A stretch of DNA of 64,000 nt from NCBI GenBank assembly GCA_035341855.1, contig DAOQWA010000007.1:18646-82645 (forward strand), written 5' to 3'. A program made the translations under genes and the position numbers. Source of the DNA: Bacteroidia bacterium (GTDB taxonomy: Bacteria > Bacteroidota > Bacteroidia > AKYH767-A > 2013-40CM-41-45). Shown here piece by piece: positions 1,381 through 45,714 of the stretch. The notes under the pieces were generated by a model, which was given only the letters and a program-made list of their open reading frames with translations, made no database searches and was not told the origin of the DNA. Position 1 is the first letter of the stretch. The number at the start of each line of letters is the position of its first letter.

Positions 1381-1481
1381 TTGGGCTTTACGAATGAATA
1401 TTTATATATTGTACTTGTCAATGTGGGTTTATTCAACTCCTTTGATTAAGTGAATAAGTAAATTTTTTGCGCCCGCTTTTT

Positions 1482-3158: not shown

Positions 3159-3238
3159 CCCGGGACTGAGAAATCTGAGATTACTCTGATAAAAGTTAAT
3201 TGTTTTATACCTGCGACATAGAATTAAAAGACATTTTT

Positions 3239-3868
3239 ATGAATCATGTAAAATCAAGACCAATATCAGATAGAAAATTTACAATGGACAGGTATATAAA
3301 ATTAAAGGAACATATACTCGGGTATTTAAAAGCAAGATTGCCGGATAATTTATATTACCACAGTTATAATCATGTGATCGATGTATTGGGTGCAGCTGAA
3401 TTTCTTGCAGAGAAGGAAGGCTTAAGCCCGATAACGAAAGAGCTTGTAAAAGTTGCAGCATTGTTCCATGATTCAGGCTTTACAATAGAAGCCAGGGAGC
3501 ATGAGAAATTAAGTTGTGATATTGCGCGGGAATTGCTTCCGGAATTTGGTTATACTTTAGCAGAGATAGAACTGATAGCTGCTATGATCATGGCAACAAA
3601 GTATCCGCAAAGTCCGACTAACTTAATGGAAGAAATAATTTGTGATGCCGACCTTGATTATCTGGGTCGCGAGGATTTTTTTGAAATTGGAGGCTTACTT
3701 TTAACTGAACTGAATGAATCTGGCCGGTTTAAAACTGAAAAGGACTGGAATCATTTTCAGGAAAAGTTCATCAGTTCACATAAGTATTTTACAAAAACAG
3801 CTCAGGAACTTCGTGAACCTAAAAAGTTGGAGCACTTAAAAATGATCAGAGAAAGTTTGAAAGATTAA
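3239..3868 (+). CDS. HD-domain metal-dependent phosphohydrolase
   Basis: HD motifs are present (YHSYNHVIDVL, ALFHDSGF, CDADLDYLG). The start is chosen at the internal ATG 3239, downstream of the listed ORF start at 3200. Confidence 0.7.
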   Translation: MNHVKSRPISDRKFTMDRYIKLKEHILGYLKARLPDNLYYHSYNHVIDVLGAAEFLAEKEGLSPITKELVKVAALFHDSGFTIEAREHEKLSCDIARELLPEFGYTLAEIELIAAMIMATKYPQSPTNLMEEIICDADLDYLGREDFFEIGGLLLTELNESGRFKTEKDWNHFQEKFISSHKYFTKTAQELREPKKLEHLKMIRESLKD

Positions 3869-3903
3869 TCCGAAAAATTATAAAAGGATTTTGCAAAAAA
3901 AAA

Positions 3904-5925
3904 TTAAGACCTGATGCCTTCAACAAAATACATGTCTATTTCACCTTTGTTTTTAGCTTTTATTTTTCCACGGTGAATGCATTTGAATTGATCTTTAATA
4001 ATTTCATAAGTAGGTCCGCTAACATTTACCTTGCCTACCTCGCCACTTGATTCCATTCTTGAAGCAGTATTAACTGTGTCGCCCCAAATGTCATAGGCGA
4101 ATTTTTTAATTCCGACAATTCCTGCTACAACAGGTCCGGTATGAATACCAAGCCGAAGTTCAAAAAATGGCTGTCCGGTTGATTCTCTTTTTGCTTTGTT
4201 TTTCGCAATGAATTCCTGCATCTCAAGACCGGCTTTCACTACATCTGTTGCATGTGTAGAGTTTGGTGCCGGAAGACCGCCTGCGCACATGTAACTGTCA
4301 CCAATAGTTTTAATCTTCTCGATACCGTATTTAGTGATGATCTTATCAAATTCGCTGTAGCAATAATTAATTTCTTCGACTAATTCTTCGGCCGATAATT
4401 TTTCGCTGGCCTGAGTAAAATTTTTGAAGTCAGTGAACATGACACTTACCTGATCAAAGCTTTTTGCTTTTGCAGATCCTGTTGCTTTCAACTCTTCAGC
4501 TGTTTCTTCCGGAAGAATGTTCAGGAGTAATTCTTCACTGCGTTGTTTTTCTTTGGCTATTTTCTTTTTCTGAAAGAATACAACTACAAGGAAGATGCAC
4601 ACTACAGAAAGTCCGCCGATAGTAGCATTTTTAATTTGCTTTTGTCTTTTAAGATCCAGTTCCTGTAAAGCTTTGTCCTTTGTCAGGAGATCAATTTGTC
4701 CTTGTTTCTTTTGGATATCGAAGGTGAATTGTAAGCCGGAAAGTTTTTTATCGGCATCAATATTATAAAGTACTTGCTTGATTTCTGTAAGCTTACTTTG
4801 GTAGTTGTAAGCTTTTTCATATTTACCTTGTTTTGCATAAGCGAGTGCAAGTCCGGCGTAAGTATTCATTAGTTCAATGTTTGATCCGCCAAGTTCTTCA
4901 CCCAGTTTTTCTGCTTCCGAATATGCGCCAATTGCCAAGTTGATATCTCCCATAGCAAAATAGGTATCACCTAACCAGAGTCTTGCTTGTGTCATGTCCA
5001 AAAGAGTTTCCAGTTTTTTGGAAATTTCATAGGCGTTTTTTTGATAGCTGATCGCTTTGTTGTATTCTTTTCTACGGGCATAAATTCGTCCGATCCAGTT
5101 CATTGCCGCCGGAAGGTCTTCACTTGTTTCAGAAATTTTCATTGCTTTTTCAAAGTAGACGAGGGCCAGACTGTCGTTTACTTCTGCAAGGCTATCGATT
5201 GAAGAGCGATCGAGTGATTTGTATTCAGAGGACTGTGATATTTGAGTTGTGTCTTTTCGGAAATATGCTTCACCTATGTTAATACAAATTGTTCCTATTG
5301 CATCTTTTGTTTCCTGTGATTCTTGATCATGATAAGCTTCCATCAGTGGAAGGGCTCTGAAGTAATATTCCAAAGCTTTGTCATAGGTTTTAGGTTTGTT
5401 GGAATAAACACCTCCAATATTTGACAAAGCAGTTACTATTCGAAGTGTATCCTTGAGCTCTTCTGAAACTTTGAGAGAGTTGAGATACAGTTCAAGAGCT
5501 TTGTTATCATCCCCCTGATTAAAATAGACTGCGCCTTCATTGCTTAATATATTTGCTACTCCTGTTTTATCTCCAATTGAGTCAAACAAAGCAAGAGACA
5601 GCTCCCAATATTCAAGTGTTTCGACTGATTTTCCTTGCAAATAATATCCAATACCAATTGATTTTAAAGCGGTGGCAGATTCTTTCGCAAGATTTGATTT
5701 GACTGCAAGATCATTGGCAAGTTCGGCAAAGCGAATTGCCTTTTGCGGATCCGAGCCATAATATTTTTTTGCAAGTTCAAGAAGTGCAGTTACTTTAAGC
5801 GAATCATCATTCGTTGTTGAGATGATGCTTTGAAGGCTGTCAATTTCTTCGTTTTGAGCGACTGTTAGTTGAGTCAGACCAAAAGAGAGTATAAAAAGCG
5901 AAAATACTAGCCTATACATTGGCAT
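3904..5925 (-). CDS. TPR-repeat, membrane-anchored class III adenylate/guanylate cyclase
   Basis: Signal or TM segment at the N-terminus, many TPR-like repeats, one internal TM helix (IGGLSVVCIFLVVVFF), and a C-terminal CYC domain (FTDFKNFT...IKTIGDSYMCAGGLP...LRLGIHTGPVVAGIVG...WGDTVNTASRMES). Confidence 0.85.
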   Translation of the reverse strand: MPMYRLVFSLFILSFGLTQLTVAQNEEIDSLQSIISTTNDDSLKVTALLELAKKYYGSDPQKAIRFAELANDLAVKSNLAKESATALKSIGIGYYLQGKSVETLEYWELSLALFDSIGDKTGVANILSNEGAVYFNQGDDNKALELYLNSLKVSEELKDTLRIVTALSNIGGVYSNKPKTYDKALEYYFRALPLMEAYHDQESQETKDAIGTICINIGEAYFRKDTTQISQSSEYKSLDRSSIDSLAEVNDSLALVYFEKAMKISETSEDLPAAMNWIGRIYARRKEYNKAISYQKNAYEISKKLETLLDMTQARLWLGDTYFAMGDINLAIGAYSEAEKLGEELGGSNIELMNTYAGLALAYAKQGKYEKAYNYQSKLTEIKQVLYNIDADKKLSGLQFTFDIQKKQGQIDLLTKDKALQELDLKRQKQIKNATIGGLSVVCIFLVVVFFQKKKIAKEKQRSEELLLNILPEETAEELKATGSAKAKSFDQVSVMFTDFKNFTQASEKLSAEELVEEINYCYSEFDKIITKYGIEKIKTIGDSYMCAGGLPAPNSTHATDVVKAGLEMQEFIAKNKAKRESTGQPFFELRLGIHTGPVVAGIVGIKKFAYDIWGDTVNTASRMESSGEVGKVNVSGPTYEIIKDQFKCIHRGKIKAKNKGEIDMYFVEGIRS

Positions 5926-5976: not shown

Positions 5977-6011
5977 AAAAAAAAAGAGGGAACCATGTCC
6001 CTCTTTTTTTA
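5977..6011. terminator. bidirectional rho-independent terminator
   Basis: A9-AGAGGGA-accatg-TCCCTCT-T7: a GC stem flanked by an A-run and a T-run, directly 3' of the giant minus-strand gene. Confidence 0.6.
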
Positions 6012-6027
6012 TTGGTGAAATAAGATA

Positions 6028-6270
6028 TTATTGTTTTTTAATAACAAAGAACTTCTGTACAGTTGTTTTGTCATCCTTGCTTACAGAAAGGAAATAAACA
6101 CCCGGAGTCCATGTAGATGACTCGATATCTATTCTATGTTCTTCGTTCGCTTTCACGAAGCGATCAAACAGTATGCTTGTTCTTGAGCCATTGATCTGAT
6201 AAACTTCAACAACAACCTGCCCATCATTCTTGCCAATAAACTTTAATACTGCATCCTGAGATGTTGGATT
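6028..6270 (-). other. T9SS type-A C-terminal sorting domain of the giant protein
   Basis: C-terminal ~80 aa: ELYPNPTSQDAVLKF...VVVEVYQINGSRTSILFD...GVYFLSVSKDDKTTVQKFFVIKKQ. Confidence 0.75.
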
Positions 6271-9200
6271 AGGGTAAAGTTCAAACGATCTGCCTGCATC
6301 AAGATCTGTCGATTCAAGTCTGCAATTTGTGTTTATTGAAACCGACTTATTCAAAGGAAGACTTAATCCACACAGGTTTTCTGCCTTCACGGTTAGTATG
6401 GTCGAGTTAGCCGTGCCTGTAGTGAAATTAACAAGAGCGGAACTTCCGTTTCCTTGTGGTGTAGGGATGACGCCATTTGTAGCATACCAATGATAAGAGA
6501 TTGTACCAGGGACAGAAGAGCTGGAGTACAATACTGAAGTCTGACTCTTACACACCGATCCAGGTCCGTCCATTGTAGAAGGAGCGGCAAGTAATGCTGA
6601 TACTGGTAAGCAACGAGAAATAGAAGCACCACAACTATTGGTGGCGCTCACACACACAGTTCCGTTACCGGTAAATGCTGCAGTATAATCGACAGTGATT
6701 GAGGTACCGGTATTATTGACAATGTTTACTCCCGAAGGTACAGTCCAGTTATAGCCTGTTGCACCCGCAACCGGCGCTATGCTGTAAGTAACTCCACTTT
6801 GTAAACACAAACCTGTGTAAGGTCCGGAAATTCCACCCGGCTGACCCGGGATAGAACGTATCGTAAATTCACGGGTAAATGTTCCACAGATATTCGTTGT
6901 TGATATCGACAAGACTCCTGTAGTGAATGAAGGTCCAAAATTAAAGTTTGCTGAAGTTCCGCTTTGTGATGCCACGGAAACATCGCCGCTTACAACTGCC
7001 CATGTGTAAGTATCAGTTCCTATGACAGGCGCCATGGTATAAGATACATTATTTGTTCCGGCGCATACATATGTTGGTCCAACTACAGCATTGCCATTCA
7101 CCGGTGTTCCGGTGATAGTCATTGAACGGGTAGAGGTAGTTCCCATACAATTAGAAGCATTGACCATCACTCTTCCTTGTCCGAATGCTGCACTAACACT
7201 CACAATAATAGAGTTGCTTCCCTGACCACTCAGGATGCTGGCTCCTGCACCGGTGACTGTCCAATTATAGCTTGTTGCATTTTGTACAGGAGATAGAGTG
7301 TAAGTGTGTAAGCCCGGTCCACAAGCTATGGCAGGTCCGTTGATGAATCCCGGGTTAGAAGGTCTGAGAGAAAGTACAATGATATTCGTACTTGATATTT
7401 GTCCGCTTCCACAAACGTTCTCAGGTGTTACGCTAAGGAATCCTCCATTGAATGTGTTGGAGAAAGTCAGGGTAATAGATGTAGAAGTAGATGATCCGCT
7501 AGTACCCGGAGGTATTGTCCAGGCATAGGAGGTAGCTCCTGATACAGGTGCAATAGAATAAGTCACTACAGAATTTCTACAAGCTCCATAAGGACCTGAA
7601 ATGGCACCGGCCGGTTCAGGTGGAATACCTGCTCCGCTAACCGTAACTGTTACCACTCCGGTACATCCCTTTGTATCTGTGATCGTAACTGAATAAGGTC
7701 CGGCACTTAATCCGGTGGCAGTTTGTGTTGTTTGGTTATTTGACCATAAGAAAGTGTATGGTGCCATACCGCCTGTAGGATTGATCGTGGCAGTTGCATT
7801 CGCCAATCCGCATATTTCAGTGGTTGTAGAACTTGTTCCTTCAACTTTAGCAGGTTCAGTCATCTCAAACGTGCCTGTTGCAATATTTCCATTGTCATCT
7901 GTTACAGTAAATGTTTGCATACCTGCCATTACTCCGCAAACTATTCCCGTACCTATATATGGTCCCGTTCCTCCCGTGACATTTACGGTCACGCAACCTG
8001 TTCCGCCGAAGCATTCAATTGCTGTTTCTTCTGTCACAGTAACTTCTATCTCCGGTGCTAACATAGTAAGCACTCCCAGATCGTAGGTGATCATGAAGTT
8101 GTTTGACGAAAGGAGAGGTGCAGGTACAATTGTGTGAGTCCCTACAGTTGTTCCTGTGATCAAATTGATGGAGTAGAAAGTATCCAGCGAATCCGTCGGA
8201 GGAGCGTTCACATCTTCTTCGTCAATGATTACCACTACATCATCATGTGTCGGGTCGTCTATGTCTTCGCTATTGACAATTGCACGTCCATTTACAATGG
8301 CTCTGGCATTCACAATTGCTCTTCCGTTCACAATTGCTCTTCCATTCACGATTGCCCTGGCATTCACAATTGCTCTGGCATTTACGATTGCTCTTGCGTT
8401 AACAAGTGCAGATGAATCCGGGTTTAACTGATAGTTAAAGATAGATTCAACGCCAACATCCACAACATTGGTTGTATCGTATTCGGTGATATTGTTCACT
8501 ATTGCCCTGGCATTTACAATAGCTCTGGCATTTACGATTGCTCTGGCACTAACAAGGAATCCTAAATTTTGAAGGTCTGAGTTTACGATTGCCCTTCCAT
8601 TGACAATTGCACGCGCATCCACCAGGGCAGTAGCGTGTTCTGCGATGTTTTCAAGGTGTTCTGTTTGCAAATCAAGAAGGAAAGAATTCCTGATTGAGCT
8701 ATCTATATTGGTTTCATCGTAGGTGTAGCTGTATGAGAATCCATTGATCTGTTGCCCTTCAACCAATGTTGTATCATTTGGCTTAATAACCAGAGGAAGT
8801 TGTTCAACTGAAATTAGTCCGTCAACGAAGGAGTATGTATAGGCTTCAAGTAAAGCAACGTCTATACTATCTGCCGGATCAAGCACTCTCATAGATGGTC
8901 GGATGAAATAAAGGTCCACATTGCTGAGGCTGTGTGCCGGAGTGGTGAAGAAGATCGTATCTAGTCCTACATCAGCAAGAGTCAGACCGGTATTTTGAAT
9001 AGGAACACTATCTACCAATACAGTCGCAGTGAATGCAGGTAATACTTCTCCATATTTTTTAGAAGTGTCATTTGCAATTACTATGATTGATTGTTTTGTA
9101 CTTGGGAAGAAAAATGCAGAATCTGAATATCCGCCATCGTTCATATTTGTCACTGTTGGTGGAGTGTATACCTGTACAGGCGGGTTGCCAATGAACGAAG

Positions 9201-12200
9201 GGAAGGTGGCAGACAATTGAGTTGAACTAATCCTTGTTGTCGGTAATGAATCACCCCTTAATAGAATTACAGAGTTAGCTGTAAAATAATGTCCGTTCAC
9301 GGTCACATCAAAACTTTGTGAACCCGGAACAATAGTAGTGTCATCAGGCGATAAACTTGTAATCAAAGGTTTTCCTGCGGCAAATGACTGTAATGCTGCA
9401 TCAGCCTGGATGAATCCAAAACCGGTGCTGTCATCATAACCGATAGTCGGTCCCATTTCGATGGTGGTAGTCTTGAGGATATTTCGAATGTTTTCAGGAC
9501 TGAGTGCCTGATTATAGAATTTTTGTCTTCCTTCAATGAGCAATGCCGCAACGGCAGCAGCATGAGGAGCTGCAGCAGAAGTACCATAGAAGTTAGGGAA
9601 GCCATCACCATCGATATCCGGGCCACCAAGAGTAACAGTGGTGTTCACTCCATTTGGCGCTACGAAATCAGGTTTCATTCTATCGACGCCATTTATCAAC
9701 GTTCCTCCGGTAGACGAGAATGTAGCAATAGTCGGAGGTGATTGTCCGAAAGCAGGGGTGTATAGGTAGAGCGCTGCGCCGACTGTCATGGCTCCGGTTG
9801 CGTTCGCTTGTCCAACGATAGTTGATGATGCAGTATTGAATTCGTCAATTGTTGCCTCACCGCGGAATATGATGTATTTAAATTTCACATTCGGCGCACC
9901 GGCAACTTTTGTGATTAGAATATTGGCACTGGTTTCAGCTCTTACAGAGAATGATAATACTTCTACCGGATCTCCCCAAATATTATTTCTATTGAAACCG
10001 AAGAGAACGGTTCCATCATTATCCACAAGATAAAGATCAAGGTCTGTAAGCGCTCCGGGAAGCTGTCCGAGTGAGTACATAGAATCTTCCCACTGTAAAA
10101 CGATAGTATAGGAGCCGCGACCTAATGTCAAATGCTGGAAGATATCTCCTCCACCAAAATCATGTGGTGTTCCAAAAACTCCGGGAGGAGCAACAGCTGC
10201 CTGGAAAGTACTTTCATAAGACTTGTTGCCATAATTACCTGCGGCCGTGAAATATGAAACGCCACGATCCGCTACTTCATTAACTGCTCTGGCAACAACA
10301 CCATCCTGAAAGAACGGTTCAGTAATAAAAGTAATGTCATCAACAAGTACATCACAGCTATCATCAATACCAAGTTGTTTGATTCCTTTTGCAAGATCAC
10401 CTGCACTGATAAATCCGGTACGGAATGCAAGTTCAGCATCCGGTGCGACATCGTGAACAATTTGCAACATGGCTCTTCCTTCATCGGTACGGATACCGTA
10501 AGGATACTCTTTAAGAACATTTACCGGATTGGAATTATTAGGATTTTGGATCCCCGGCAAATCTCCATTTTGGACATTTGCTAATGCAGGGTTACCGGTA
10601 ATAGTATTGTAACTATCTGAAAGAACCCCGACTTTAACACCGGCACCGGTTACTCCAAATGCAGTTCGTGCCCTGTCAGCCCGCATGGCTATATCCCCAT
10701 TGCTATATGCAATTCCGGTTACACCGGTACCTATTACAGGCGGATAATATGGACGACAGAAATTACATAATGTAGTGAGTGAATCAACTTTGTATAGGTT
10801 TCTAATCGGAAACTTACCTGTGATGATTAAACTACTCAATCCATTATCAACTGTATCAGTCAGTCCATAGTCAGGTGTAATCAATAGATTATATAAACTA
10901 TCTGTCATACCATCCTGAGCAATGAATTCCATCAAGACACTATCAGCTCTGAATAATAATAGGTTTTGGTTTAGAGTATCTGCTACGATGGAATCAACAT
11001 TATTCGAAACTGATGTTAATTCTGATCCCAATATTGTTCCTGTTCTGCCACTATCAGTTGGCGTAACAGCAGGGACAATACATGTGATGATAGTAACATT
11101 AGCTGACGTTCCTGCGAAGCATCCGTTGTTGTCGGTCACTGTATAAAAATAAGAACCGGTAAGCAGGTTTGTTGTACTGGCTCCACCTATATTATATGGT
11201 GGTGTTCCTCCGTCTGGTGTCAATGCTACGCTACCTGTACTTCCGATACAAACATCCTGTGCCGTTGGATCAGCAGTGAGAGTAAGTTGGCTTGGCTGTG
11301 TAATTGTAACATCACAGCTGGTGCTACAGCCATTTGCATCCGATACTGTAGTTGTATAGGTTCCGGCAGCTATGTTATTGTAATTTCCGGTTCCTGAATA
11401 AGGTGCCGTTCCTCCTATAGCAATTACGACATAAGATCCGGTACTGTCACCGTAACAAAGAGTATTTGATGTTACTGCACAATTTGCCATAAGTTGAGTT
11501 GGTTCGGTGATGGTCGCTATACAGGTAGTCTGACAACCATTGGCATCAGTAACAGTGTAGTTGTAATCCCCGGCTGATAAACCTGTTAATGGGTCACCTG
11601 TGATCGTATATGGTGCCGTTCCTCCGACAGGAGTAACTGCAGCCACACCATTATTTCCTCCATTACATGATACCGCACTTTGTTCTGAACCAATTGCATA
11701 AAGGTAATCAGGCTCGGTTATGGTTGCAATACATGTTGCAATACAACCCAAAGCATCCTCAACTGTAAATGTCGGAGTTCCTGCGCTCAGATTTGTGAAA
11801 ACACCTTCTCCTGTATAAGGACCGGTGCCTCCGGAAGCTGTCACCGTTACCACAGCATCGTTTCCTCCGTTACAACTTACTGCTGAAGTGACAGAGCAAT
11901 TTGCAACTACTGTGCACTGAGGTGGTTCATTGATCGTTACAGAACATGCATAAGACGAAGAACCGCAGCCATTAGCATCATTTGCATAATAGTAATAAGT
12001 TCCTGCGGAAAGATTTGTATGAAGTCCTTCATCGCCGCTATATGGCGGTGTTCCACCGGAGGCAGTGACTAAAGCTACACCATCATTTCCGCCATATGTT
12101 GTGACGTCACTAACAGTTGAACAGACTGACAGTAACAGGTCAGGTTCAGAAACTGTTGTGGTACAATTGGCGAAACAGCCGGCATCATCTTGAACTGTGA

Positions 12201-15200
12201 AAATATATGTTCCGGCGCCATAGTTGCTGAATACGCCTTCTCCTATATAAGGAGCTAAGCCACCAGATGCTTGCACTTCGATTTGTGCGTCATTGTACCC
12301 ATTACAGCTTACGGTTGAGATCACCGTACAACTTGCTGTAAGATTACAAGGGCCATCGTTAATAGTGACTGCACATGAATTAGAAGAAGAGCCACAATTA
12401 TTTGCGTCATCAACATAGTAGTAGTAAGTCCCTGCAGATAAATTTGTGTGAATTCCATCATCACCACTATAAGGCGGGGTTCCACCTGTGGTTGTAACTA
12501 AAGCAGCTCCATCATTTCCACCTGCGATAGTTACATCATTGATTGTTGAACATACGAACTCTAACAAAGCAGGTTCGTTGACGGTTACCGGCAAGAGACC
12601 GCTGCCGCAACCATTAGCATCAGATCCTCCTATGAAGTACTGGCCTGGTGCCAGGCTATTGAATACACCGGAATTATTTTGTAAGTAAAGGCTATTAGGT
12701 CCATAAAGATAATACGAATAGCCTGTAGGGTAGGTGATAAGGTCTGTTTGAAGAGTACCGCCTGAAATACCATAAAATTCCAATTGTCCGTTGTTATAGC
12801 CGAAGCATGTAACATGAGTAGGGTCAACTGATCCGGTTACAACAAGAGTTGGTTGTGTAACAGTGACTGAGTCTGTATCCGTACAGCCTACTGAGTCTGT
12901 TATTGTAAATACGACCGTTGTGTCTGTTCCGATAAATCCGTTTATAGTCTGCAGTCCTATTCCGGAATAAGGTGCAGTTCCTCCGGCAGCAGTTACGTCG
13001 ACTTCAAACACATATCCATTGCAGTCAGGTGTACCAGCATTCAATGAAATTGTTGGAGAAGAGTTTGAGATGACCACATTAACGCTTGCAACCTCAAGGC
13101 ATCCAATGGCAGAAATTACTCTAATGTAATATGTTCCTGTAGTGTGTGCATGATTTGAATCCAAAGGGATAGTCATATCAGAATCTTCCCAATATGTAAA
13201 TGTTAAAGGCGATGTTGAATAAGTTCCGGCGGTGATGGATGGAGCACTAAGATCAATAGGTGATCCATTACATGAAGGAGGTGGGTCGTTCACGATCAAT
13301 GATACTGAATCGCTAAGGACAGTAGTAGAGATTGTGTCAGTACAGCCGTTGTTGTAGAAGATAATTGCTTCATAAGTACTTCCACTTGTAACAGATATTT
13401 GATTTGTAGTCTGAGATCCGGGACTCCATAAATATCCGGTGAAAAAATGATCACTCAAATAGGTTGAGTTTAACCAGGATGTTGAACCATATATTGTAGC
13501 AGGATAAAAGGTTGGAGAAGGAAAAGAAGGGCCGGGAGGATTGGATCCCGGACCGACAGGTCCTTGAGAATTTCCGTACCAGTCATATCCGAAGTCCTGA
13601 GTTTCTGTTCCATATCCGTCGTACATAGGGATATAACAGATCAGGGATGAAGGAACATAGTCTGAAAAATTAATATATAAGCCATCATTGATATCAGATT
13701 GACTCAATGCACCTTCCCACACTCTCACCTCATCAATAGAACCATTGAAGAACATTGTATTTGATACAGGAACCGACATAGCGATTCTGTATTCTGTTCC
13801 GGAGGTGTTGTATGTTCTGATGCCGGAACCTGCAGGCTGGCCATTAACGTATAACTGTACAGTTGTACCGTCATAGCTGGCTGCAACATGAGTCCATGTA
13901 TTCAGTGGAATTGGAATATTTCCAGTTACACCGTTTGAAGGCGAACCGAACATGAGATTAGAGCCCATCAAAAACAAGCCGCAGCTTTCGGACATATTAT
14001 CATTGATTTGACCATAGTTGAAGATAACTGAATTTTGATTTATTGTCGGGTTGATCCAGGCTTCAATTGTTCTGGAATCATCACCCGGAGGCAATAAATA
14101 ATTTTCACCTTCTGCATAATCAGTGCTGCCATTAAAATATAATGCATAGTCTTCAAAAGTCCTTATTTCAAGTGTGACAGGAGAAGAATTACAGACTGAA
14201 TTATAGTCCGGTCTTGTGATCTCCGCTACAGGATTGGTGTATACCTGGAGATTTAATGAGCTGGAACTACAGCCATTATCATCTGTCGCGCTAATCGAAT
14301 ATGGACTTTGATAGGTGGGATAAAGATTTGTGGTGTCACCCCAAATTTGATAAGGACCAGTCCCACCTGTAACTGCTACCGAAACACTTCCTGAACTTCC
14401 CTCACAAACAAATAATGGATTTGGTGTTATGGTAAGTGTCATTTCATCCGCTTCAAGGATGGTCACAGCTTGAGGTCCCTGAGAAGTTACGCATCCTGTT
14501 GCATCACTAACGTATATCATATAGGTTCCGGCATGCAGGTTGCCGAAAAAGCCATACTGATTGCTGTCATAATATTCATTGATACCGGTAATAGTAACAT
14601 CATAATTCACACCTGAGATAGGTACTCCGCCGCTTATACCGGAAACTGTTACACTTCCATCATATCCATCAAAGCATTCATTGTCTGTTTGGGAAATTGT
14701 GTAACTTAAATTCGGTGAGTCGTTTAGCACAAACGGGTAAGTAGCACTACCGGTGTAAGCAGGATCACTGCTGGTAACTCTCATCCGGTATGCCAATGAA
14801 GTTGAATTAACAGACGGAAGATTTATCTCAATAAATCCTGATGAAGATGAGCTGCCATAGGTTCCTACAACGACAGGTGAGTTGAAACTACCTGTGCTGT
14901 CGCTTAATTCTACATTTATGATGTTTCCGCTGTTAAAGGCTATGTCTGAATTGTATGGTAAAAACAAATAGCTGCCTTCACAGTAAGAAGAATCAACCTG
15001 TCCAAGGTTCAGAAAAGATCCCGGTGGAACTGCCTCCCCAACTTGGAAGTCGCTGAATGTCGTCAGATTGTTGACTTGTATCGAAGTGGCTGTTCGACTT
15101 ACAACATTCACTGGTTGCCAGCCATTTCCGGTATTATACTTTTCTACATTGAACAAAGAATGATCGGCTGCGGAATCAATTTCTGTAGCATCCCAATTCA

Positions 15201-16995
15201 AGGTCATGTATACATTGTTGTAGGTGCCTCCATTTTTATTGATCTTCCAATGCCTGTTTACGCTTTTGGTAGGATCAATTCCGGATCCTGAAATCCCCGG
15301 ATGATCAGAATTAATTGTGGAAACTGTGATTGATCCGGGACTTGTTACATCAGCAAAAGCAAAGACAACCGGACGATAGCCGGAATTGTCACCAACACGG
15401 AATTCCAAATATGGATATCCGACAGGGAAGTACATTTCCAGAATTCCATTGATATAATTTTGTGTACCTGAATTATTTTGAACAGTAGTACCGGGTCCTA
15501 TGATCAGCTTTGTAGAATCTGTAGTTAATATTCCACCGTAATTGAAATTTAAAAAGTTAGTGATGGTTTGGTCTCCATTCAACTGCAGTCCGGGGCCAAA
15601 ATGAAACATGAGCAGATTACTGATCGATCCTGTTCCATATATGATTTGAAGTGCATTGCCTGAGATGGCAAAATCTGAAAGGCTAATTGTTCCATTGTTG
15701 ATCAATGTTGCAGATGAATACCAAAGGGAAGCATTACCAACGATTTCAGCGCCTGATGATACGTCTAATGTTGCACCGCCAAACCAACTGAAAGCTCCGT
15801 CATTTCGGAGATCGGTAGATGGTCCGTTATTTATTGTAAGAGTGCCTCCACTTGCAGCAAGCGTCGCTCCCGGCTGGACAAAGGTCTGGTCAATGACTAC
15901 GTTTGAAGTTACCGTTATTACATGGGGACTGCGGATGATTATCTGGTTATCAGAAGCATTTGGTTCAGTAGCTGCTGCTATCCAATTAGTACCATTATAT
16001 CTTTCCCAGCTACCGGTTGAACTCCAATCTCCTGAAGAAACCGATCTGTAGAATCCGGCCACCGGGTCAATGATACCATCACAATCGTCATCGATCCCAT
16101 TAGAAGGAATTTCAGTTGCACCGGGATATACAGTTGGGATAAGATCATTGCAATCACCGCTCAGTGCTGCATATCCTGTAGGTTGGGTACATGCAATAGA
16201 ATCAGTTCCGGTCACGCCATATCCATCCTGATCCTGATCTAAATACCATGTTGCAGGAGTACCAACAGGGCCTGATGTCACCCAATTTGAAGTTGCACCG
16301 CTGAGCGCAAAATTTGTTAGTGTCATATCATAAGCATTTCCACTCGCATCTGTCAAAGTGGTAATTCCTGTGTTTGTGCCACCCGGAATACCTTGGTTGA
16401 AATGGTAATTTGCTATAAGACCATTACCCATAGTTAGAATCTCGCAATTTAAATTGGACTGAATCTCAGTACCGCTTAATGCTCTATTCCAAATCCTCAA
16501 CTCGTCAACACTTCCGCCAAAATGTTCACTATTGCCGGTCCACTGTGTTCCGATGTAAAAATTGGCTACAGTTGGAGGATTAGGGAAAGAATGAGTCGGG
16601 TTAGGTAATGGATATCCCGCAGTTGCCCGAAGAACACCATCCAGATAAAGATAGCCGTTTGTGTTTGTTCTTACGACCGTATAGTTATGCCAATTAAGAT
16701 CTGTTGGCCAGGGAACACCTGTTGGAGTCCAGGTGTCTCCAATTCGAATGGTGTCATTGTAATATTGTCCGATATAAAAATATCTCCCTTGCGATATTAT
16801 ATTTTTAAGTTGGCCCGGAACGAAACTATTCTGTTTTGCCCAGATAGAAACGGTATACTCGCCGGTTGTAGGAACTAACTCTGTTGGTCCGTTTACAACA
16901 TCATTAATTCCATCAAGATGCAGAGCCTGTCCATCAGCTTTTAATGAATAAAAAATGACTGCAACTAAAACGAAAAATCCCCTCAAGAATTTCAT
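6028..16995 (-). CDS. giant T9SS-secreted multidomain surface protein (LamG-like, PKD-like, SprB-type repeats, subtilase S8-like domain, type-A C-terminal sorting domain)
   Basis: The continuous ORF runs 6028..17091 (3687 aa), but the Sec signal peptide (MKFLRGFFVLVAVIFYSLKADGQ) begins at the in-frame ATG 16995. LamG-like segments are recognisable (DELRIWNRALSGTEIQ; DEVRVWEGALSQSDI). Repeated C..G..GG(T/A)(P/A)PY motifs indicate SprB-type repeats. PKD-like modules carry the recurring (A/G)TSY.WT motif. A subtilase serine motif GTSAAAPHAAAVAALL lies at about 9540-9590. The last ~80 aa (VYQINGSRTSILFDRF...GVYFLSV...KFFVIKKQ) match a T9SS type-A sorting domain. Confidence 0.85.
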   Translation of the reverse strand: MKFLRGFFVLVAVIFYSLKADGQALHLDGINDVVNGPTELVPTTGEYTVSIWAKQNSFVPGQLKNIISQGRYFYIGQYYNDTIRIGDTWTPTGVPWPTDLNWHNYTVVRTNTNGYLYLDGVLRATAGYPLPNPTHSFPNPPTVANFYIGTQWTGNSEHFGGSVDELRIWNRALSGTEIQSNLNCEILTMGNGLIANYHFNQGIPGGTNTGITTLTDASGNAYDMTLTNFALSGATSNWVTSGPVGTPATWYLDQDQDGYGVTGTDSIACTQPTGYAALSGDCNDLIPTVYPGATEIPSNGIDDDCDGIIDPVAGFYRSVSSGDWSSTGSWERYNGTNWIAAATEPNASDNQIIIRSPHVITVTSNVVIDQTFVQPGATLAASGGTLTINNGPSTDLRNDGAFSWFGGATLDVSSGAEIVGNASLWYSSATLINNGTISLSDFAISGNALQIIYGTGSISNLLMFHFGPGLQLNGDQTITNFLNFNYGGILTTDSTKLIIGPGTTVQNNSGTQNYINGILEMYFPVGYPYLEFRVGDNSGYRPVVFAFADVTSPGSITVSTINSDHPGISGSGIDPTKSVNRHWKINKNGGTYNNVYMTLNWDATEIDSAADHSLFNVEKYNTGNGWQPVNVVSRTATSIQVNNLTTFSDFQVGEAVPPGSFLNLGQVDSSYCEGSYLFLPYNSDIAFNSGNIINVELSDSTGSFNSPVVVGTYGSSSSSGFIEINLPSVNSTSLAYRMRVTSSDPAYTGSATYPFVLNDSPNLSYTISQTDNECFDGYDGSVTVSGISGGVPISGVNYDVTITGINEYYDSNQYGFFGNLHAGTYMIYVSDATGCVTSQGPQAVTILEADEMTLTITPNPLFVCEGSSGSVSVAVTGGTGPYQIWGDTTNLYPTYQSPYSISATDDNGCSSSSLNLQVYTNPVAEITRPDYNSVCNSSPVTLEIRTFEDYALYFNGSTDYAEGENYLLPPGDDSRTIEAWINPTINQNSVIFNYGQINDNMSESCGLFLMGSNLMFGSPSNGVTGNIPIPLNTWTHVAASYDGTTVQLYVNGQPAGSGIRTYNTSGTEYRIAMSVPVSNTMFFNGSIDEVRVWEGALSQSDINDGLYINFSDYVPSSLICYIPMYDGYGTETQDFGYDWYGNSQGPVGPGSNPPGPSFPSPTFYPATIYGSTSWLNSTYLSDHFFTGYLWSPGSQTTNQISVTSGSTYEAIIFYNNGCTDTISTTVLSDSVSLIVNDPPPSCNGSPIDLSAPSITAGTYSTSPLTFTYWEDSDMTIPLDSNHAHTTGTYYIRVISAIGCLEVASVNVVISNSSPTISLNAGTPDCNGYVFEVDVTAAGGTAPYSGIGLQTINGFIGTDTTVVFTITDSVGCTDTDSVTVTQPTLVVTGSVDPTHVTCFGYNNGQLEFYGISGGTLQTDLITYPTGYSYYLYGPNSLYLQNNSGVFNSLAPGQYFIGGSDANGCGSGLLPVTVNEPALLEFVCSTINDVTIAGGNDGAALVTTTGGTPPYSGDDGIHTNLSAGTYYYYVDDANNCGSSSNSCAVTINDGPCNLTASCTVISTVSCNGYNDAQIEVQASGGLAPYIGEGVFSNYGAGTYIFTVQDDAGCFANCTTTVSEPDLLLSVCSTVSDVTTYGGNDGVALVTASGGTPPYSGDEGLHTNLSAGTYYYYANDANGCGSSSYACSVTINEPPQCTVVANCSVTSAVSCNGGNDAVVTVTASGGTGPYTGEGVFTNLSAGTPTFTVEDALGCIATCIATITEPDYLYAIGSEQSAVSCNGGNNGVAAVTPVGGTAPYTITGDPLTGLSAGDYNYTVTDANGCQTTCIATITEPTQLMANCAVTSNTLCYGDSTGSYVVIAIGGTAPYSGTGNYNNIAAGTYTTTVSDANGCSTSCDVTITQPSQLTLTADPTAQDVCIGSTGSVALTPDGGTPPYNIGGASTTNLLTGSYFYTVTDNNGCFAGTSANVTIITCIVPAVTPTDSGRTGTILGSELTSVSNNVDSIVADTLNQNLLLFRADSVLMEFIAQDGMTDSLYNLLITPDYGLTDTVDNGLSSLIITGKFPIRNLYKVDSLTTLCNFCRPYYPPVIGTGVTGIAYSNGDIAMRADRARTAFGVTGAGVKVGVLSDSYNTITGNPALANVQNGDLPGIQNPNNSNPVNVLKEYPYGIRTDEGRAMLQIVHDVAPDAELAFRTGFISAGDLAKGIKQLGIDDSCDVLVDDITFITEPFFQDGVVARAVNEVADRGVSYFTAAGNYGNKSYESTFQAAVAPPGVFGTPHDFGGGDIFQHLTLGRGSYTIVLQWEDSMYSLGQLPGALTDLDLYLVDNDGTVLFGFNRNNIWGDPVEVLSFSVRAETSANILITKVAGAPNVKFKYIIFRGEATIDEFNTASSTIVGQANATGAMTVGAALYLYTPAFGQSPPTIATFSSTGGTLINGVDRMKPDFVAPNGVNTTVTLGGPDIDGDGFPNFYGTSAAAPHAAAVAALLIEGRQKFYNQALSPENIRNILKTTTIEMGPTIGYDDSTGFGFIQADAALQSFAAGKPLITSLSPDDTTIVPGSQSFDVTVNGHYFTANSVILLRGDSLPTTRISSTQLSATFPSFIGNPPVQVYTPPTVTNMNDGGYSDSAFFFPSTKQSIIVIANDTSKKYGEVLPAFTATVLVDSVPIQNTGLTLADVGLDTIFFTTPAHSLSNVDLYFIRPSMRVLDPADSIDVALLEAYTYSFVDGLISVEQLPLVIKPNDTTLVEGQQINGFSYSYTYDETNIDSSIRNSFLLDLQTEHLENIAEHATALVDARAIVNGRAIVNSDLQNLGFLVSARAIVNARAIVNARAIVNNITEYDTTNVVDVGVESIFNYQLNPDSSALVNARAIVNARAIVNARAIVNGRAIVNGRAIVNARAIVNGRAIVNSEDIDDPTHDDVVVIIDEEDVNAPPTDSLDTFYSINLITGTTVGTHTIVPAPLLSSNNFMITYDLGVLTMLAPEIEVTVTEETAIECFGGTGCVTVNVTGGTGPYIGTGIVCGVMAGMQTFTVTDDNGNIATGTFEMTEPAKVEGTSSTTTEICGLANATATINPTGGMAPYTFLWSNNQTTQTATGLSAGPYSVTITDTKGCTGVVTVTVSGAGIPPEPAGAISGPYGACRNSVVTYSIAPVSGATSYAWTIPPGTSGSSTSTSITLTFSNTFNGGFLSVTPENVCGSGQISSTNIIVLSLRPSNPGFINGPAIACGPGLHTYTLSPVQNATSYNWTVTGAGASILSGQGSNSIIVSVSAAFGQGRVMVNASNCMGTTSTRSMTITGTPVNGNAVVGPTYVCAGTNNVSYTMAPVIGTDTYTWAVVSGDVSVASQSGTSANFNFGPSFTTGVLSISTTNICGTFTREFTIRSIPGQPGGISGPYTGLCLQSGVTYSIAPVAGATGYNWTVPSGVNIVNNTGTSITVDYTAAFTGNGTVCVSATNSCGASISRCLPVSALLAAPSTMDGPGSVCKSQTSVLYSSSSVPGTISYHWYATNGVIPTPQGNGSSALVNFTTGTANSTILTVKAENLCGLSLPLNKSVSINTNCRLESTDLDAGRSFELYPNPTSQDAVLKFIGKNDGQVVVEVYQINGSRTSILFDRFVKANEEHRIDIESSTWTPGVYFLSVSKDDKTTVQKFFVIKKQ
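8275..8640 (-). repeat. intragenic 18-bp tandem repeat array encoding (A/G)RAIVN hexapeptides (about 13 copies in three blocks)
   Basis: Plus-strand units ATTCACAATTGCTCTKSC repeat, with wobble-position differences between copies. They are in frame with the giant ORF: ARAIVNGRAIVN...ARAIVNARAIVNARAIVN...ARAIVNARAIVNARAIVNGRAIVNGRAIVNARAIVNGRAIVN. The same DNA reads as (AF/PF)TIAL repeats in the spurious plus-strand ORF 8225..8431. Confidence 0.85.
9480..10660 (-). other. subtilase (peptidase S8)-like domain within the giant protein
   Basis: A candidate Asp segment lies at about 10600-10640 (KVGVLSDSY), though the motif fit is imperfect. A perfect Ser motif G-T-S-A-A-A-P-H-A-A-A-V-A lies at about 9550-9590. 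The position expected for the His motif reads EGRAMLQIVHDVAP, so the status of the catalytic His is uncertain. Confidence 0.6.
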
Positions 16996-17099
16996 GGCAT
17001 TGAGGGGGCATTCAATAGGATTTTCATTTCGAAGTCCGGATCGTTCTTGGTTTTTTACGACATAAGAATTCAAGGTAGATTTAGCGACCATAAGAGTTT

Positions 17100-17120
17100 G
17101 TGTGTTGTGTGTTGTGTGTT
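17100..17120. repeat. heptanucleotide microsatellite (GTGTGTT)x3
   Basis: gtgtgtt gtgtgtt gtgtgtt lies upstream (5') of the giant minus-strand gene. Confidence 0.7.
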
Positions 17121-17433
17121 GAAAAGTAAGGTTCGTGTGTATATGGGGTACTTCAGATTATTTTTGAAGACAAGGAATTTAAGATCAAATGAATTCCAGC
17201 ACCATTGGTGATCAGCAGAACGGTGTATAAATCAGAATTTTTAAATCTAATGAAAATAAACCAAAACGTGCCAATTGTTGACAAAAAATTAAATATAAAA
17301 ATGTCCTTTTTGGCGAATGAAACAAATTGATTGGTCAATTTCCTTCTGAAAAAAGCGATATTTATTTGGAATTGTTAGCTAAATTATCGTTCTGTACTGT
17401 ATAAACCATTAGCACTTATTCTTTGGCCATTCA

Positions 17434-18972
17434 TTACCTTATAATGGTGAATTTTTGATGGCTCAGGGAAAAATTAGATTCAACTACGAGAATGTAAATA
17501 CCTTCCGCAAATTGGCTGATGTCGATTGTGTTCAAATCGTTAGCCAGGAGTCCGGTATGTACTGAACTACCGTCGGTTTTTAAAATTTTGAATGGAGTTG
17601 GTTGATGATTATCTGACAGTTGGATGTGTAAATTATCGTTAACAGGAATCGGAAACAATTTGAAAGAAAGCTTCGGAGGACCCTCAGGAATCTCGACAAG
17701 ACTGAATGCCAAAATATTGGAGCTGGAAATACATCCATTTTGATAAACTATTTTGGCTTGATAGTTTCCTGAACTCTGAGGAACCAGATATGAAAGAGTA
17801 TCGTTTGTCAGAAGGACAGAGTTTAAAAACCATTGAATATTTCCGGCGGTAGAGGCAAAGATGCTATCATTCAATAGCGAGATCGAAATGGAGGGCGAGG
17901 GGAGTATATCAATATTTATGTCATCTGAGTCGGAACAACCATTACTATCTGTAACCAGTAAAGTAAATCCTGTAGTTGAGTTGATTGTTGCAAGAGGGTT
18001 TGCAATTAAAGGGTCACTTAATGGCAATGCCGGTGTCCATGTATATGTATAGGGCGTTGTGCCTCCGGAAGCAGAGGGGTTTCCTCCAAGTGAAATGCTT
18101 TCGCCTTCACAAATGACGAGATCTGTTCCGGCATCTGCATTAAGGTTGCTTACGTTCACGAACAAAGAAACCGGAAGGCTGCTTCCACAACCATTATTTG
18201 CGACAACTTGAAGATTTCCTGAATTAGAATTTGCCATTACAGTAATACTGTTTGCGGATGAGCTTCCTGTCCATCCGGCCGGAATTGTCCATGAATAAGA
18301 TGTTGCGCCGATTACCGGGTTTATTGTATAGGTCTGCGTAGTGCCATGACAGATAGCCGGATTTCCTGAAATTGGATTTGGTTGATCAGGCACCGGACAA
18401 ACTTGTTCAGTGACTGTCAAGCTTGATTTGTAGACATAGTCATTATTGTCATTAGCGTTTCCGTCTGCGGCAACGCCTGCAAAGTAAAAGCTCACAGGCC
18501 CTGTACCGCTGGATGGTGCTGTCCAACTAAAATTAAAAGTTTTTGACCCGCTTGCAGCACCGGCATTTAGTTGATGGACAACATTTCTTCGAGTTACAGA
18601 ATTCACCACTCTGGTTTTGATCTGAGTTGCGGCAGCATCGGTGATGACCAAAGTACCTGCATTGTCATTTAAACTATTCAAAGCCTCAAAACCGAAGCCA
18701 AATAAATTATTAGACGTTCTGGACACAGTTATACTCATATTGTAAGTCTGACCTGCGACATACTCATTCAATGGCATTCCGGCATTTTGGAAAGTAATTG
18801 TACCACCTCCGGTATTTACCGGAAAGGAAGAATGGCAGGTCGTACAGTCTGTCTCACCGGGGGATCCGGTGTAACCTGCTCTTCCATCATCGCTAAACTG
18901 CTCACTGGTAAATAGTAAAACCGATAAGAATGGTAATACAGCAGGAATTATTTTCTTTATTATTCTGGTCAT
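17434..18972 (-). CDS. T9SS-secreted protein with PKD-like domain and type-A C-terminal sorting domain
   Basis: Signal peptide (MTRIIKKIIPAVLPFLSVLLF). PKD-like module with the ATSYSWTIPAGWTGSS motif. C-terminal LKLFPIPVNDNLHIQL...GIYILVVESNF...KFTIIR resembles a T9SS CTD. An N-terminal CTTCH (CxxCH) motif is present. Confidence 0.75.
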   Translation of the reverse strand: MTRIIKKIIPAVLPFLSVLLFTSEQFSDDGRAGYTGSPGETDCTTCHSSFPVNTGGGTITFQNAGMPLNEYVAGQTYNMSITVSRTSNNLFGFGFEALNSLNDNAGTLVITDAAATQIKTRVVNSVTRRNVVHQLNAGAASGSKTFNFSWTAPSSGTGPVSFYFAGVAADGNANDNNDYVYKSSLTVTEQVCPVPDQPNPISGNPAICHGTTQTYTINPVIGATSYSWTIPAGWTGSSSANSITVMANSNSGNLQVVANNGCGSSLPVSLFVNVSNLNADAGTDLVICEGESISLGGNPSASGGTTPYTYTWTPALPLSDPLIANPLATINSTTGFTLLVTDSNGCSDSDDINIDILPSPSISISLLNDSIFASTAGNIQWFLNSVLLTNDTLSYLVPQSSGNYQAKIVYQNGCISSSNILAFSLVEIPEGPPKLSFKLFPIPVNDNLHIQLSDNHQPTPFKILKTDGSSVHTGLLANDLNTIDISQFAEGIYILVVESNFSLSHQKFTIIR

Positions 18973-28958: not shown

Positions 28959-29309
28959 ATGGGTGCAGGTTCTATGATCATGTTGATGCTTTGTGGCATA
29001 GCCTTCTCTGCGGGAGGGATCTTGCTTTCAAAAGCATTGATCAAAAAATCATACAATCCACAAAAGGGTCAGACTTATGAATGTGGGGTTCCGACAGTAG
29101 GGAAGTCATGGATTCAGTTGAATGTCGGCTACTATCTTTTTGCTCTTCTCTTCCTGATCTTTGATGTTGAGCTGGTTTTTTTATTTCCATGGGCGGTTGT
29201 AGTTAAAGAGTTGGGCTGGCCGGCGCTAATCGAGATATTGATCTTTCTGACAATTCTATTTTTGGGTTTTCTTTATGCACATAGAAAAGGAGCATTGAAA
29301 TGGATGTAA
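28959..29309 (+). CDS. nuoA: NADH-quinone oxidoreductase subunit A
   Basis: 116 aa with 3 TM helices and the NuoA signature [16 protein letters not shown]. Confidence 0.9.
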
Positions 29310-29809
29310 AAGATAAACCGACATTACCAAAGCCTTTTCCGGGTCAGGTACATGAGACACCCGGAGGAGGGATACTTGTAAGCAAACTTGATGATGTGAT
29401 CAAATGGGCGAGGTCCAATTCCTTATGGCCATTGGTTTTTGGAACAAGTTGCTGTGCCATTGAAATGATGTCAACAGCATCCGCTAAATATGATTGGTCA
29501 AGGTTTGGATTTGAAGTTGCAAGAGCTACACCTCGTCAGGCAGATGTAATTATCATTGCTGGTACCATCGTAAACAAAATGGGGCCTGTTCTAAAAAGGT
29601 TATACGATCAGATGCCTGATCCTAAATATGTAATTGCGATGGGTGCATGTGCTACCTCAGGTGGACCATTTTTCTACAATACATATTCTGTAGTGAAAGG
29701 AGCTGACCATATTATTCCTGTTGACGTATATGTCGCAGGTTGTCCACCCAGGCCGGAAGCCTTATTACATGCTTTGATTTCATTACAAGAAAAAATTCGG
29801 AATACTTAG
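29300..29809 (+). CDS. nuoB: NADH-quinone oxidoreductase subunit B
   Basis: [17 protein letters not shown] and [14 protein letters not shown] motifs (N2 cluster cysteines). It overlaps the nuoA stop. Confidence 0.95.
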
Positions 29810-29839
29810 AACTGAACGGAATTTGTTTCCGGAAAATTT

Positions 29840-30295
29840 ATGACAGCAACTGAACTTAAAGATAAACTACAGTCCATTCGGCAAACATTGAGCTTTGAAG
29901 AGACAGCTGAGTGGCTGACGGTGAATGTAGACTCAGCCGAATTTCACGACTTTGCTTTGGAGTTGCGCGATCAAGCAGAGTTGGATTTTGATTTTCTCTT
30001 TTGTGTGACTTGTGTAGATTGGAAAACTCAGTTGTCGATGGTTTATCATTTGCGTTCACTGGATCGTAAGCATAGCATTGTGGTAAAATGTAAGTTGGAT
30101 CGGGAGAAGCCCGAGATACAGACTGTTTCAGATTTATGGCATACCGCCGAATTTCATGAAAGAGAAGCCTATGATTTATTTGGCGTCAAGTTTACAGGTC
30201 ACCCTGATCTTCGCAGATTATTTCTGACTGATGATTGGGTAGGATGGCCTTTAAGAAAAGATTACGATGATCCTGTAAATATGATAAAGTTGTAA
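29840..30295 (+). CDS. nuoC: NADH-quinone oxidoreductase subunit C (30 kDa)
   Basis: Conserved NuoC core (HDFALELRDQ...LWHTAEFHEREAYDLFGVKFTGHPDLRRL). Confidence 0.9.
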   Translation: MTATELKDKLQSIRQTLSFEETAEWLTVNVDSAEFHDFALELRDQAELDFDFLFCVTCVDWKTQLSMVYHLRSLDRKHSIVVKCKLDREKPEIQTVSDLWHTAEFHEREAYDLFGVKFTGHPDLRRLFLTDDWVGWPLRKDYDDPVNMIKL

Positions 30296-30310
30296 TCAGG
30301 TGGATTATTT

Positions 30311-31426: not shown

Positions 31427-31452
31427 TGACTGTCAACATAGAATGAATAACG

Positions 31453-32529: not shown

Positions 32530-32554
32530 GAAAATTAATTGTTGAAGACAGGGT

Positions 32555-33860: not shown

Positions 33861-33902
33861 AATTAGAGTAGTTCATGCAAGCAAGCAAGAAGAAAAAATA
33901 AA

Positions 33903-35837: not shown

Positions 35838-35849
35838 GCTCTCAGGAAT

Positions 35850-37346: not shown

Positions 37347-37352
37347 GATTGT

Positions 37353-45700: not shown

Positions 45701-45714
45701 AGGAGAGAGAGTGA

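Follow-up and report, generated by a model that had tools for sequence, protein, structure and literature searches.

The 64,000 nt stretch of DNA analysed here (the window; contig DAOQWA010000007.1 of a Bacteroidia bacterium) carries on its minus strand a giant gene whose product combines adhesin-type repeats with a subtilisin-fold domain and a type IX secretion system (T9SS) sorting domain. The gene is a single unbroken open reading frame (ORF) at 6028..17091, with its stop codon at 6028-6030, and encodes 3,687 aa when read from the ATG at 17091 or 3,655 aa when read from the ATG at 16995. Residues are numbered throughout from ATG 16995 (the 3,655-aa version), and the features of the gene and its surroundings are collected in Table 1. 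A run of ~3,700 stop-free codons is impossible by chance in DNA of 39-44% GC, and because about 1/20 random codons is a stop, a chance origin of the ORF is excluded. Two orthologues from uncultured Bacteroidota genomes (L001 and L002) are collinear with the C-terminal 2,100-2,300 aa at 65-68% identity. Together with the uninterrupted minus-strand frame, this collinearity bears out the claim of one continuous ORF made in an earlier reading of the DNA from its letters alone (the sequence-only reading).

Apart from a diverged array of 18-nt units at 8255-8643, the gene contains no DNA repeat of at least 40 nt, which makes assembly collapse or another artefact unlikely. The ORF is a genuine gene for a predicted surface protein of ~3,700 residues. 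The exact protein sequence, in either start version, is absent from the public collection searched, and the closest relatives come from two uncultured metagenome-assembled genomes (MAGs), at 82% and 77% identity.

Within the protein, an internal prodomain-like segment precedes a subtilisin-fold domain that is interrupted by a beta-sandwich insert. The sequence-only reading had described this region as S8-related, and profile and structure comparisons agree. The Peptidase_S8 family (PF00082) scored 58-64.7 bits against a cut-off of 21.8, with only profile positions 159-287 of 288 aligned, and Pfam and PDB sequence searches alike align the C-terminal half only, from ahead of the Ser motif to the end. 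When the ~130-aa insert was removed from the family profile, hhalign matched it to subtilisin BPN' over its full length at 98.8% probability. Residues 1985-2625 were modelled with AlphaFold 2 (AF2) from 74 sequences. The model had a mean predicted local distance difference test score (pLDDT) of 91.8, and contained the prodomain (2019-2082), a low-confidence linker (2086-2091), a strand at 2121-2126 and the all-beta insert (2259-2378); one helix begins exactly at E2172 and a long helix at T2472/S2473. The top 50 Foldseek matches in the PDB were all subtilases. CspB of C. perfringens and CspA and CspC of C. difficile came first (E ~5e-17) and subtilisins next, all of these at probability 1.00, followed by KP-43 and streptococcal cell-envelope proteases, with TM-scores relative to the target of up to 0.84 (for subtilisin variants). 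The prodomain-like segment ends in a conserved junction, R-P-[LVY]-[FY]-P-P, and the same segment is found directly after the signal peptide in relatives of 600-800 aa.

The perfect GTSAAAP motif noticed in the sequence-only reading is present at residues 2471-2477 (GTSAAAPH at 2471-2478), and the oxyanion motif A-G-N lies at 2252-2254. The D/H/S triad which that reading implied did not survive alignment with subtilisin, which puts the invariant E2172 at the position of His64. Against BPN' without its calcium loop (residues 75-83), E2172 aligned on His64 and the alignment ran gap-free through the V-A-P motif. In the AF2 model, E2172 starts its helix, as does His64 in subtilisin, and the domain contains no HGTH-type motif. 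Across the family, the motif D-E-G-R-[AG]-M around E2172 is followed by a near-invariant H-D-x-A-P.

Conservation was assessed in 132 further cluster representatives that are pairwise no more than 50% identical. S2473, N2254, E2172, D2171, D2220 and S2126 are 100% conserved in this sample, and R2174 and M2176 are 99% conserved (M2176 is Met in 131 of the 132). Residue 2127 is Asp in 83% of the representatives and Asn in the remaining 17%. By the register of the strand, position 32 falls to the invariant Ser2126 and position 33 to residue 2127, and no covariation partner was found for this Asp/Asn site. The 74-sequence alignment repeats this residue pattern, as do all 48 genome loci that contain the region.

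In a 2024 survey, subtilisin-like proteins were assigned only two catalytic triads, S8 and S53; for S53 the defining features given were Glu as the base, an Asp acid placed four residues further along the helix that carries the Glu, and an oxyanion hole with Asp in place of Asn (PMC11593635). Like the sedolisins (MEROPS S53: kumamolisin, sedolisin, TPP1), the window domain has a subtilisin-like fold with Glu at the base (PMC11593635). At the two other S53 positions the window family differs, having Met (99%) for the acid, M2176 here, and Asn (100%) in the oxyanion hole, N2254 here; no S53 structure was among the top 50 Foldseek matches or the top 60 PDB sequence matches. With S8 subtilases, including the T9SS-secreted mirolase of Tannerella forsythia, the domain shares the fold, the GTSxAxPH and A-G-N motifs, the prodomain and a PF00082 score above threshold, and mirolase is the best PDB sequence match (E 2.5e-18). 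It departs from canonical S8 enzymes in having Glu for His, no calcium-loop region (subtilisin 75-83) and Ser-Asp/Asn at the Asp32 site. The domain therefore falls under neither definition, because it combines Glu at the His64 position, Met at the sedolisin acid position and Asn in the oxyanion hole. Subtilisin's catalytic base is in contact with the Ser125 backbone (PMC11593635), and the invariant Asp2220 occupies the Ser125 position in our alignment. The partner acid of the Glu is probably Asp2220 or the equally invariant Asp2171, and not the variable Asp/Asn2127. As predicted from these alignments, the catalytic design is a variant of the subtilisin kind that has not been described before.

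The best structural matches, the Csp proteins (CspB, CspC and CspA), have the same three-part build of I9-like prodomain, subtilisin fold and ~130-aa jelly-roll. In CspB, the prodomain stays bound and the jelly-roll is inserted in the catalytic domain (PMC3567191). The resemblance does not extend to sequence: identity between the Csp proteins and the window domain is 12-16% only, and the NCBIfam CspBA model, whose cut-off is 1250 bits, scored 13.5. The triad of CspB is a canonical D-H-S where the window domain has Glu for His. The Csp family belongs to the spores of Firmicutes; its members are neither T9SS cargo nor set within adhesin repeats. The closest solved architecture is that of Csp, the closest sequence family is S8, and the predicted chemistry is common to S53.

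The sequence-only reading regarded fusions of adhesin and protease as rare, a view at odds with how widely the family occurs. Of the 8,000 candidates scored in a search with residues 2056-2545 (the S8-like region), 3,383 matched at E<=1e-5, many of them labelled 'S8 family serine peptidase' by NCBI, and an exhaustive profile search with the peptidase-like domain recovered 7,480 cluster representatives at E<=1e-30; among the best 150 of these, many are 1,000-4,259 aa long. A scan of one genome per species found the block at 49 loci, in ORFs of 1,080-4,780 aa (most of 1,700-2,400 aa), and 48 of the 49 carry Bacteroidota-type names. One locus, L032 (CALRMK020000004.1), comes from a MAG labelled Caulobacter sp. 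and is a typical member, 53% identical to the S8-like domain of the window; that record was probably misbinned or mislabelled. An ordinary secreted-zymogen layout is found in the short relatives (600-800 aa), which come from Hymenobacter, cyanobacteria and other phyla; in it, signal peptide, prodomain and catalytic domain are followed by a sorting tag (Por_Secre_tail, PEP-CTERM, RTX repeats or DUF4114). A homologue search with the C-terminal core returned only 7 proteins, the repeats having probably swamped the word index.

Daejeonella oryzae, Solitalea and Flavihumibacter soli have proteins of ~1,900 aa that share residues ~1940-2995, at 43-56% identity. These comparisons show that the conserved core of the family is a block of ~1,050 aa, consisting of the prodomain-like segment, the subtilisin fold with its insert, the Ig-like and MBG domains and the hexapeptide array, and that the LamG, SprB and PKD_6 modules are a variable part that differs between lineages. 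Against the two orthologues, the S8-like domain (77-87% identity) and the repeat array (87-91%) are the best-conserved parts of the protein; the corresponding values for the SprB blocks, the PKD_6 domains and the C-terminal sorting domain (CTD) are 43-75%. No NCBIfam model specific to the clade matched, the only hits being sub-threshold ones to mycosin, CspBA and other S8 models, and our literature search, which included the motifs DEGRAM and GTSAAAPH as well as T9SS/MBG/subtilisin fusions, found no paper on it. The CDD model cd05562 ('Peptidases_S53_like') may cover the clade. The protein is a new member of an annotated but unstudied family.

On balance, we lean towards the view that the domain is an active, surface-tethered, zymogen-type Ser/Glu hydrolase set in an adhesin stalk. 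The C-terminal 3573-3651 of the 3,655 residues match the type-A CTD models (TIGR04183, 36-40 bits against a cut-off of 23; PF18962, Por_Secre_tail, 35-42 against 27), and no type-B CTD model gave a match. By comparison with characterized type-A cargo, the protein would be exported by Sec through its putative N-terminal signal sequence and then by the T9SS through its CTD, which would probably be removed as the protein is fixed to the outer surface or released. The LamG, SprB and PKD_6 modules would form a long binding stalk, and the subtilisin-fold domain would fold on its own I9-like prodomain. Self-cleavage would probably take place at the conserved R-P-x-[FY]-P-P junction, after which the domain could act as a protease tethered to the stalk. 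With the prodomain lying inside the chain, this cleavage would leave two pieces, an N-terminal one of ~2,085 aa and a C-terminal one that bears the CTD. The two pieces might stay joined through the prodomain, as in CspB; alternatively, the enzyme may cut external substrates. Protease-adhesin polyproteins such as the gingipains RgpA and Kgp of Porphyromonas gingivalis are the closest functional analogues among T9SS cargo. They are type-A cargo built of prodomain, protease and adhesin domains, and become surface complexes. The gingipains are cysteine proteases (C25) with the protease at the N-terminal end and are much smaller than the window protein, in which the protease-like domain comes only after ~2,000 aa of repeats.

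Several observations weigh against an active hydrolase that processes itself. An S8 match over the C-terminal half alone is also what would be expected of a degenerate domain, the Asp32 neighbourhood as we align it is not a strict Asp, and we found no enzymology for any family member in the literature. The Pro-Pro that directly follows the aromatic residue of the junction would be a poor P1' context for a serine protease, which makes self-cleavage at this exact bond uncertain. Cleavage at the junction would also detach the N-terminal ~2,085 aa from the half that bears the CTD, and the T9SS machinery genes are not in the 64-kb window. One alternative is a pseudoprotease, in which Glu for His marks lost activity and the domain serves as a non-catalytic binding or scaffold module, as in CspC and CspA of C. 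difficile. The missing catalytic His and the Asn found in 17% of representatives at the Asp32-type residue both fit such a module, and CspC and CspA are themselves among the best structural matches. Dead enzymes usually lose their catalytic residues, however, and here S2473, N2254, E2172, D2171 and D2220 are invariant in both the 132 representatives and the 48 loci; moreover, the sedolisin Glu demonstrates that His can be replaced as the base in this fold (PMC11593635). The full conservation of the Ser, the Asn, the Glu and two Asp residues across so wide a family argues for catalysis, and we regard a dead enzyme as unlikely. An ordinary S8 subtilase with a D-H-S triad, using His2181 or another His as base and Asp2127 as acid, would account for the PF00082 score and for the 'S8 family serine peptidase' names that NCBI gives to relatives. 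H2181 is conserved in 92% of the representatives (92-100% over the samples; A, Y, N, R or Q otherwise), and we considered it as the catalytic His. It lies nine residues into the E2172 helix, at the position of subtilisin residue 73, and was rejected in view of this position and its replacement in ~8% of representatives. With no HGTH-type motif and with Asn for D2127 in part of the family, a conventional S8 enzyme is very improbable.

Another alternative accepts catalysis and confines it to a single turnover. In such a clasp, the domain would cut only its own prodomain junction, and the bound prodomain would then block the active site, as in CspB or PCSK9, leaving an N-terminal adhesin of ~2,085 aa held non-covalently on the surface-anchored C-terminal half, with no external substrate cut. 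The internal prodomain comes after ~2,000 aa, so that cleavage would necessarily split the protein; among solved structures the nearest are those of the Csp proteins, which retain their prodomain and have a comparable insert; and the junction sequence is strongly conserved. Against a clasp stand the short members of the family, whose zymogen layout gives a retained inhibitor no obvious purpose, and the lack of a conserved disulfide across the junction, and we consider it possible although rather unlikely. The ~12 SprB-type repeats could instead point to an adhesin for gliding motility that moves over the surface of the cell and in which the protease-like domain is incidental. SprB of Flavobacterium johnsoniae is likewise a giant, repetitive T9SS cargo protein built on the SprB repeat, and it has a type-B CTD, a cognate SprF and no enzyme-like domain. 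The window protein shares the repeat and differs in its type-A CTD and in having no adjacent gene of the PorP/SprF family, its neighbours being genes for a TPR-adenylate cyclase and a small PKD_6 cargo protein. These two differences disfavour a role in gliding, the SprB blocks are in addition the parts of the family that are conserved least and vary most, and we give this explanation very little credence.

A more specific possibility, which we hold only tentatively and think unlikely to be right as a whole, is that the clade represents a third catalytic design within the subtilisin fold (Ser, Glu base, an acid that is either Asp2220 on the strand beside the base or Asp2171, and an oxyanion Asn), distinct from the Ser-His-Asp of S8 and the Ser-Glu-Asp of S53, and that in the giant T9SS proteins the internal pair of prodomain and enzyme is a self-cutting clasp that would yield a two-subunit surface adhesin. 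If the domain is active, the known chemistry of a textbook protease fold would be extended, and the label 'S8 family serine peptidase' would have to be revised in thousands of annotations. If it is inactive, the protein would be an ordinary large T9SS adhesin. For T9SS biology, the comparisons show that a zymogen-like enzyme block is the conserved core of widespread giant surface proteins and that their adhesin repeats are interchangeable. The family members in the cultured Daejeonella oryzae, Solitalea longa and Flavihumibacter soli are testable targets.

Table 1. Features of the giant gene, listed from the N-terminus of its product to the C-terminus, followed by neighbouring genes (positions in the window; residues from ATG 16995)
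Feature	Position	Strand	Evidence
N-terminal extension, 32 codons, ahead of the signal-like segment	16996..17091	-	L001/L002 comparison
Signal-peptide-like segment MKFLRGFFVLVAVIFYSLKADGQA	16924..16995	-	Charged-then-hydrophobic stretch, read by eye
LamG-like jelly roll 1, residues 29-179	16459..16911	-	Pfam Laminin_G_3
MopE-type Cys/Asp metal-binding motif (Cu-binding_MopE), residues 281-310	16066..16155	-	PF11617, 39.8-44.4 bits
N-terminal module without family match, residues 311-765	14701..16065	-	Orthologue comparison
SprB-type repeats, block 1, 2 units	14161..14700	-	Pfam and by eye
LamG-like jelly roll 2, residues 956-1103	13687..14130	-	Pfam Laminin_G_3, 87.8 bits
SprB-type repeats, block 2, ~8 units	11071..13065	-	Pfam and by eye
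Internal prodomain-like beta-alpha-beta-beta-alpha-beta fold, residues 2015-2085	10741..10953	-	AF2, junction conservation
Subtilisin-fold domain, residues 2092-2540	9376..10722	-	Pfam PF00082, hhalign, AF2, Foldseek
Ser2126-Asp2127 codons, Asp32 neighbourhood	10615..10620	-	Alignments, AF2 strand register
Glu2172 codon, catalytic His64 position, motif D-E-G-R-[AG]-M, invariant	10480..10482	-	Alignments, AF2
Asp2220 codon, Ser125 position beside the catalytic base, candidate acid, invariant	10336..10338	-	Alignment
Asn2254 codon, oxyanion-hole position, A-G-N, invariant	10234..10236	-	Alignments
Beta-sandwich (jelly-roll) insert, ~130 aa, residues 2259-2385, between oxyanion Asn and Ser nucleophile	9841..10221	-	AF2
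Ser2473 codon, nucleophile position, G-T-S-A-A-A-P-H, invariant	9577..9579	-	Alignments
Ig-like / IPT-TIG-like domain, residues 2541-2625	9121..9375	-	NCBIfam CoaZ_rpt_PGGG 45.3 bits (2542-2613), AF2, Foldseek
MBG (YGX-type) region, residues 2626-2790	8626..9120	-	Pfam MBG_2 26.7 bits near 2638-2700, AF2
Hexapeptide array, 12 x (A/G)RAIVN in three clusters, residues 2791-2910	8266..8625	-	Sequence repeats
Two more SprB-type repeats	7621..8025	-	Pfam and by eye
Five PKD_6 domains	6301..7620	-	Pfam PF19408, 205.9 bits, 5 stretches
T9SS type-A C-terminal sorting domain, residues 3573-3655	6031..6279	-	PF18962, TIGR04183
cNMP (cyclic nucleotide monophosphate)-binding hybrid histidine kinase	1467-3158	+	Window annotation
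HD-domain protein	3200-3868	+	Window annotation
TPR-adenylate/guanylate cyclase, directly downstream of the giant ORF	3904-5925	-	Window annotation
512-aa PKD_6 protein with type-A T9SS sorting domain, directly upstream of the giant ORF	17434-18972	-	Window annotation
685-aa protein with type-A T9SS sorting domain, no other recognised domain	26437-28494	-	Window annotation

All the domain types listed in the sequence-only reading (LamG, PKD-like, SprB, S8-like and type-A T9SS) were recovered by the Pfam and NCBIfam scans. Beyond that list, we found the MBG_2 domain, the CoaZ Ig-like repeat, the internal prodomain-like fold, the beta-sandwich insert and the (A/G)RAIVN array. The SprB repeats (PF13573) scored 131 bits over 6 stretches, and 12 'GG..PY' units were counted by eye. 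The N-terminal module at residues 311-765 had no Pfam, NCBIfam or PDB sequence match. Part of it, residues ~380-654 (window 15034-15858), is present in one copy here and in several copies in the protein of L002 (ORF residues 597-1550) and in that of a further locus, L004 (316-1522), and this multi-copy occurrence marks it as a repeatable domain in its own right, to which no family name is attached.

The AF2 model of residues 2541-3000 is confident for the Ig-like and MBG domains, to about residue 2785, and the hexapeptide array beyond them seems to be inserted in a split MBG domain. At the DNA level, 9 different versions with a mean nucleotide identity of 81% encode the 12 identical RAIVN peptides, from which we infer that selection acts on the peptide and that the array is not the result of recent slippage. 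Variants of the hexapeptide, such as SRALAN, are found in relatives. Residues 2809-3000 were modelled from a shallow 24-sequence alignment at pLDDT <50, and Foldseek returned only generic Ig/IPT folds for the model of 2541-3000. The array may form a left-handed beta-helix, but this idea is unsupported: its unit V-N-A-R-A-I is a rough match to the pattern of hexapeptide repeats, the Pfam model Hexapep gave no match, and the PDB search gave only a non-significant hexapeptide acyltransferase (E 5.5).

Translation more likely starts at ATG 17091 than at ATG 16995, which the sequence-only reading had taken for the true start. That reading had noted that the upstream ATG would add 32 non-signal residues, and a start there does give a 32-residue extension ahead of the signal-like segment. 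In L001 and L002, the conserved motif Q(A/S)L(H/N)LDGI comes after the equivalent hydrophobic segments. The orthologue L002 has no ATG, GTG or TTG between an ATG ~35 codons 5' of its hydrophobic core and a point well into the mature protein, and in L001 the only alternatives to an ATG ~40 codons 5' of the core are TTG codons within the core itself. A CA-rich leader, ACACAACACACAAACTCTT, lies immediately 5' of ATG 17091, and the upstream ATGs of all three genes are preceded by such a leader (ACACAACACACAAAC...). The lack of another usable start in the orthologues and the similar leader favour ATG 17091. An extension of 32-40 residues before the signal core is seen in all three orthologues (window 16996-17130; L001 4360-4500; L002 720-860), its length kept and its sequence hardly so, and it may represent a longer form of the signal region that goes with cargo proteins of very large size.

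The giant gene adjoins a cyclic-nucleotide signalling cluster (window 1467-5925), and its immediate neighbours, the genes for the TPR-adenylate cyclase and the small PKD_6 cargo protein, offer no functional link to it. GC is 0.41-0.44 within the giant gene (window 6001-16000) against 0.37-0.40 in the flanking genes, a difference that probably stems from the composition of the repeats, rich in Gly, Thr and Ala, and does not point to a foreign source. An NADH dehydrogenase (nuo) operon and a nitrous-oxide reductase (nosZ/nosD) cluster, the latter including a nos propeller protein and NosD, occupy 29300-38762 and 43625-48117, which shows that the window is ordinary chromosomal DNA of a bacterium of the Bacteroidota that is likely to reduce N2O. 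Lipid A and O-antigen genes are also present in the window. At 49653-51848, on the minus strand, a 731-aa protein combines DUF5723 with a thrombospondin type-3 repeat and an OmpA domain, and next to it come two large genes (51854-53464 and 53480-56176) whose family matches are weak or absent.

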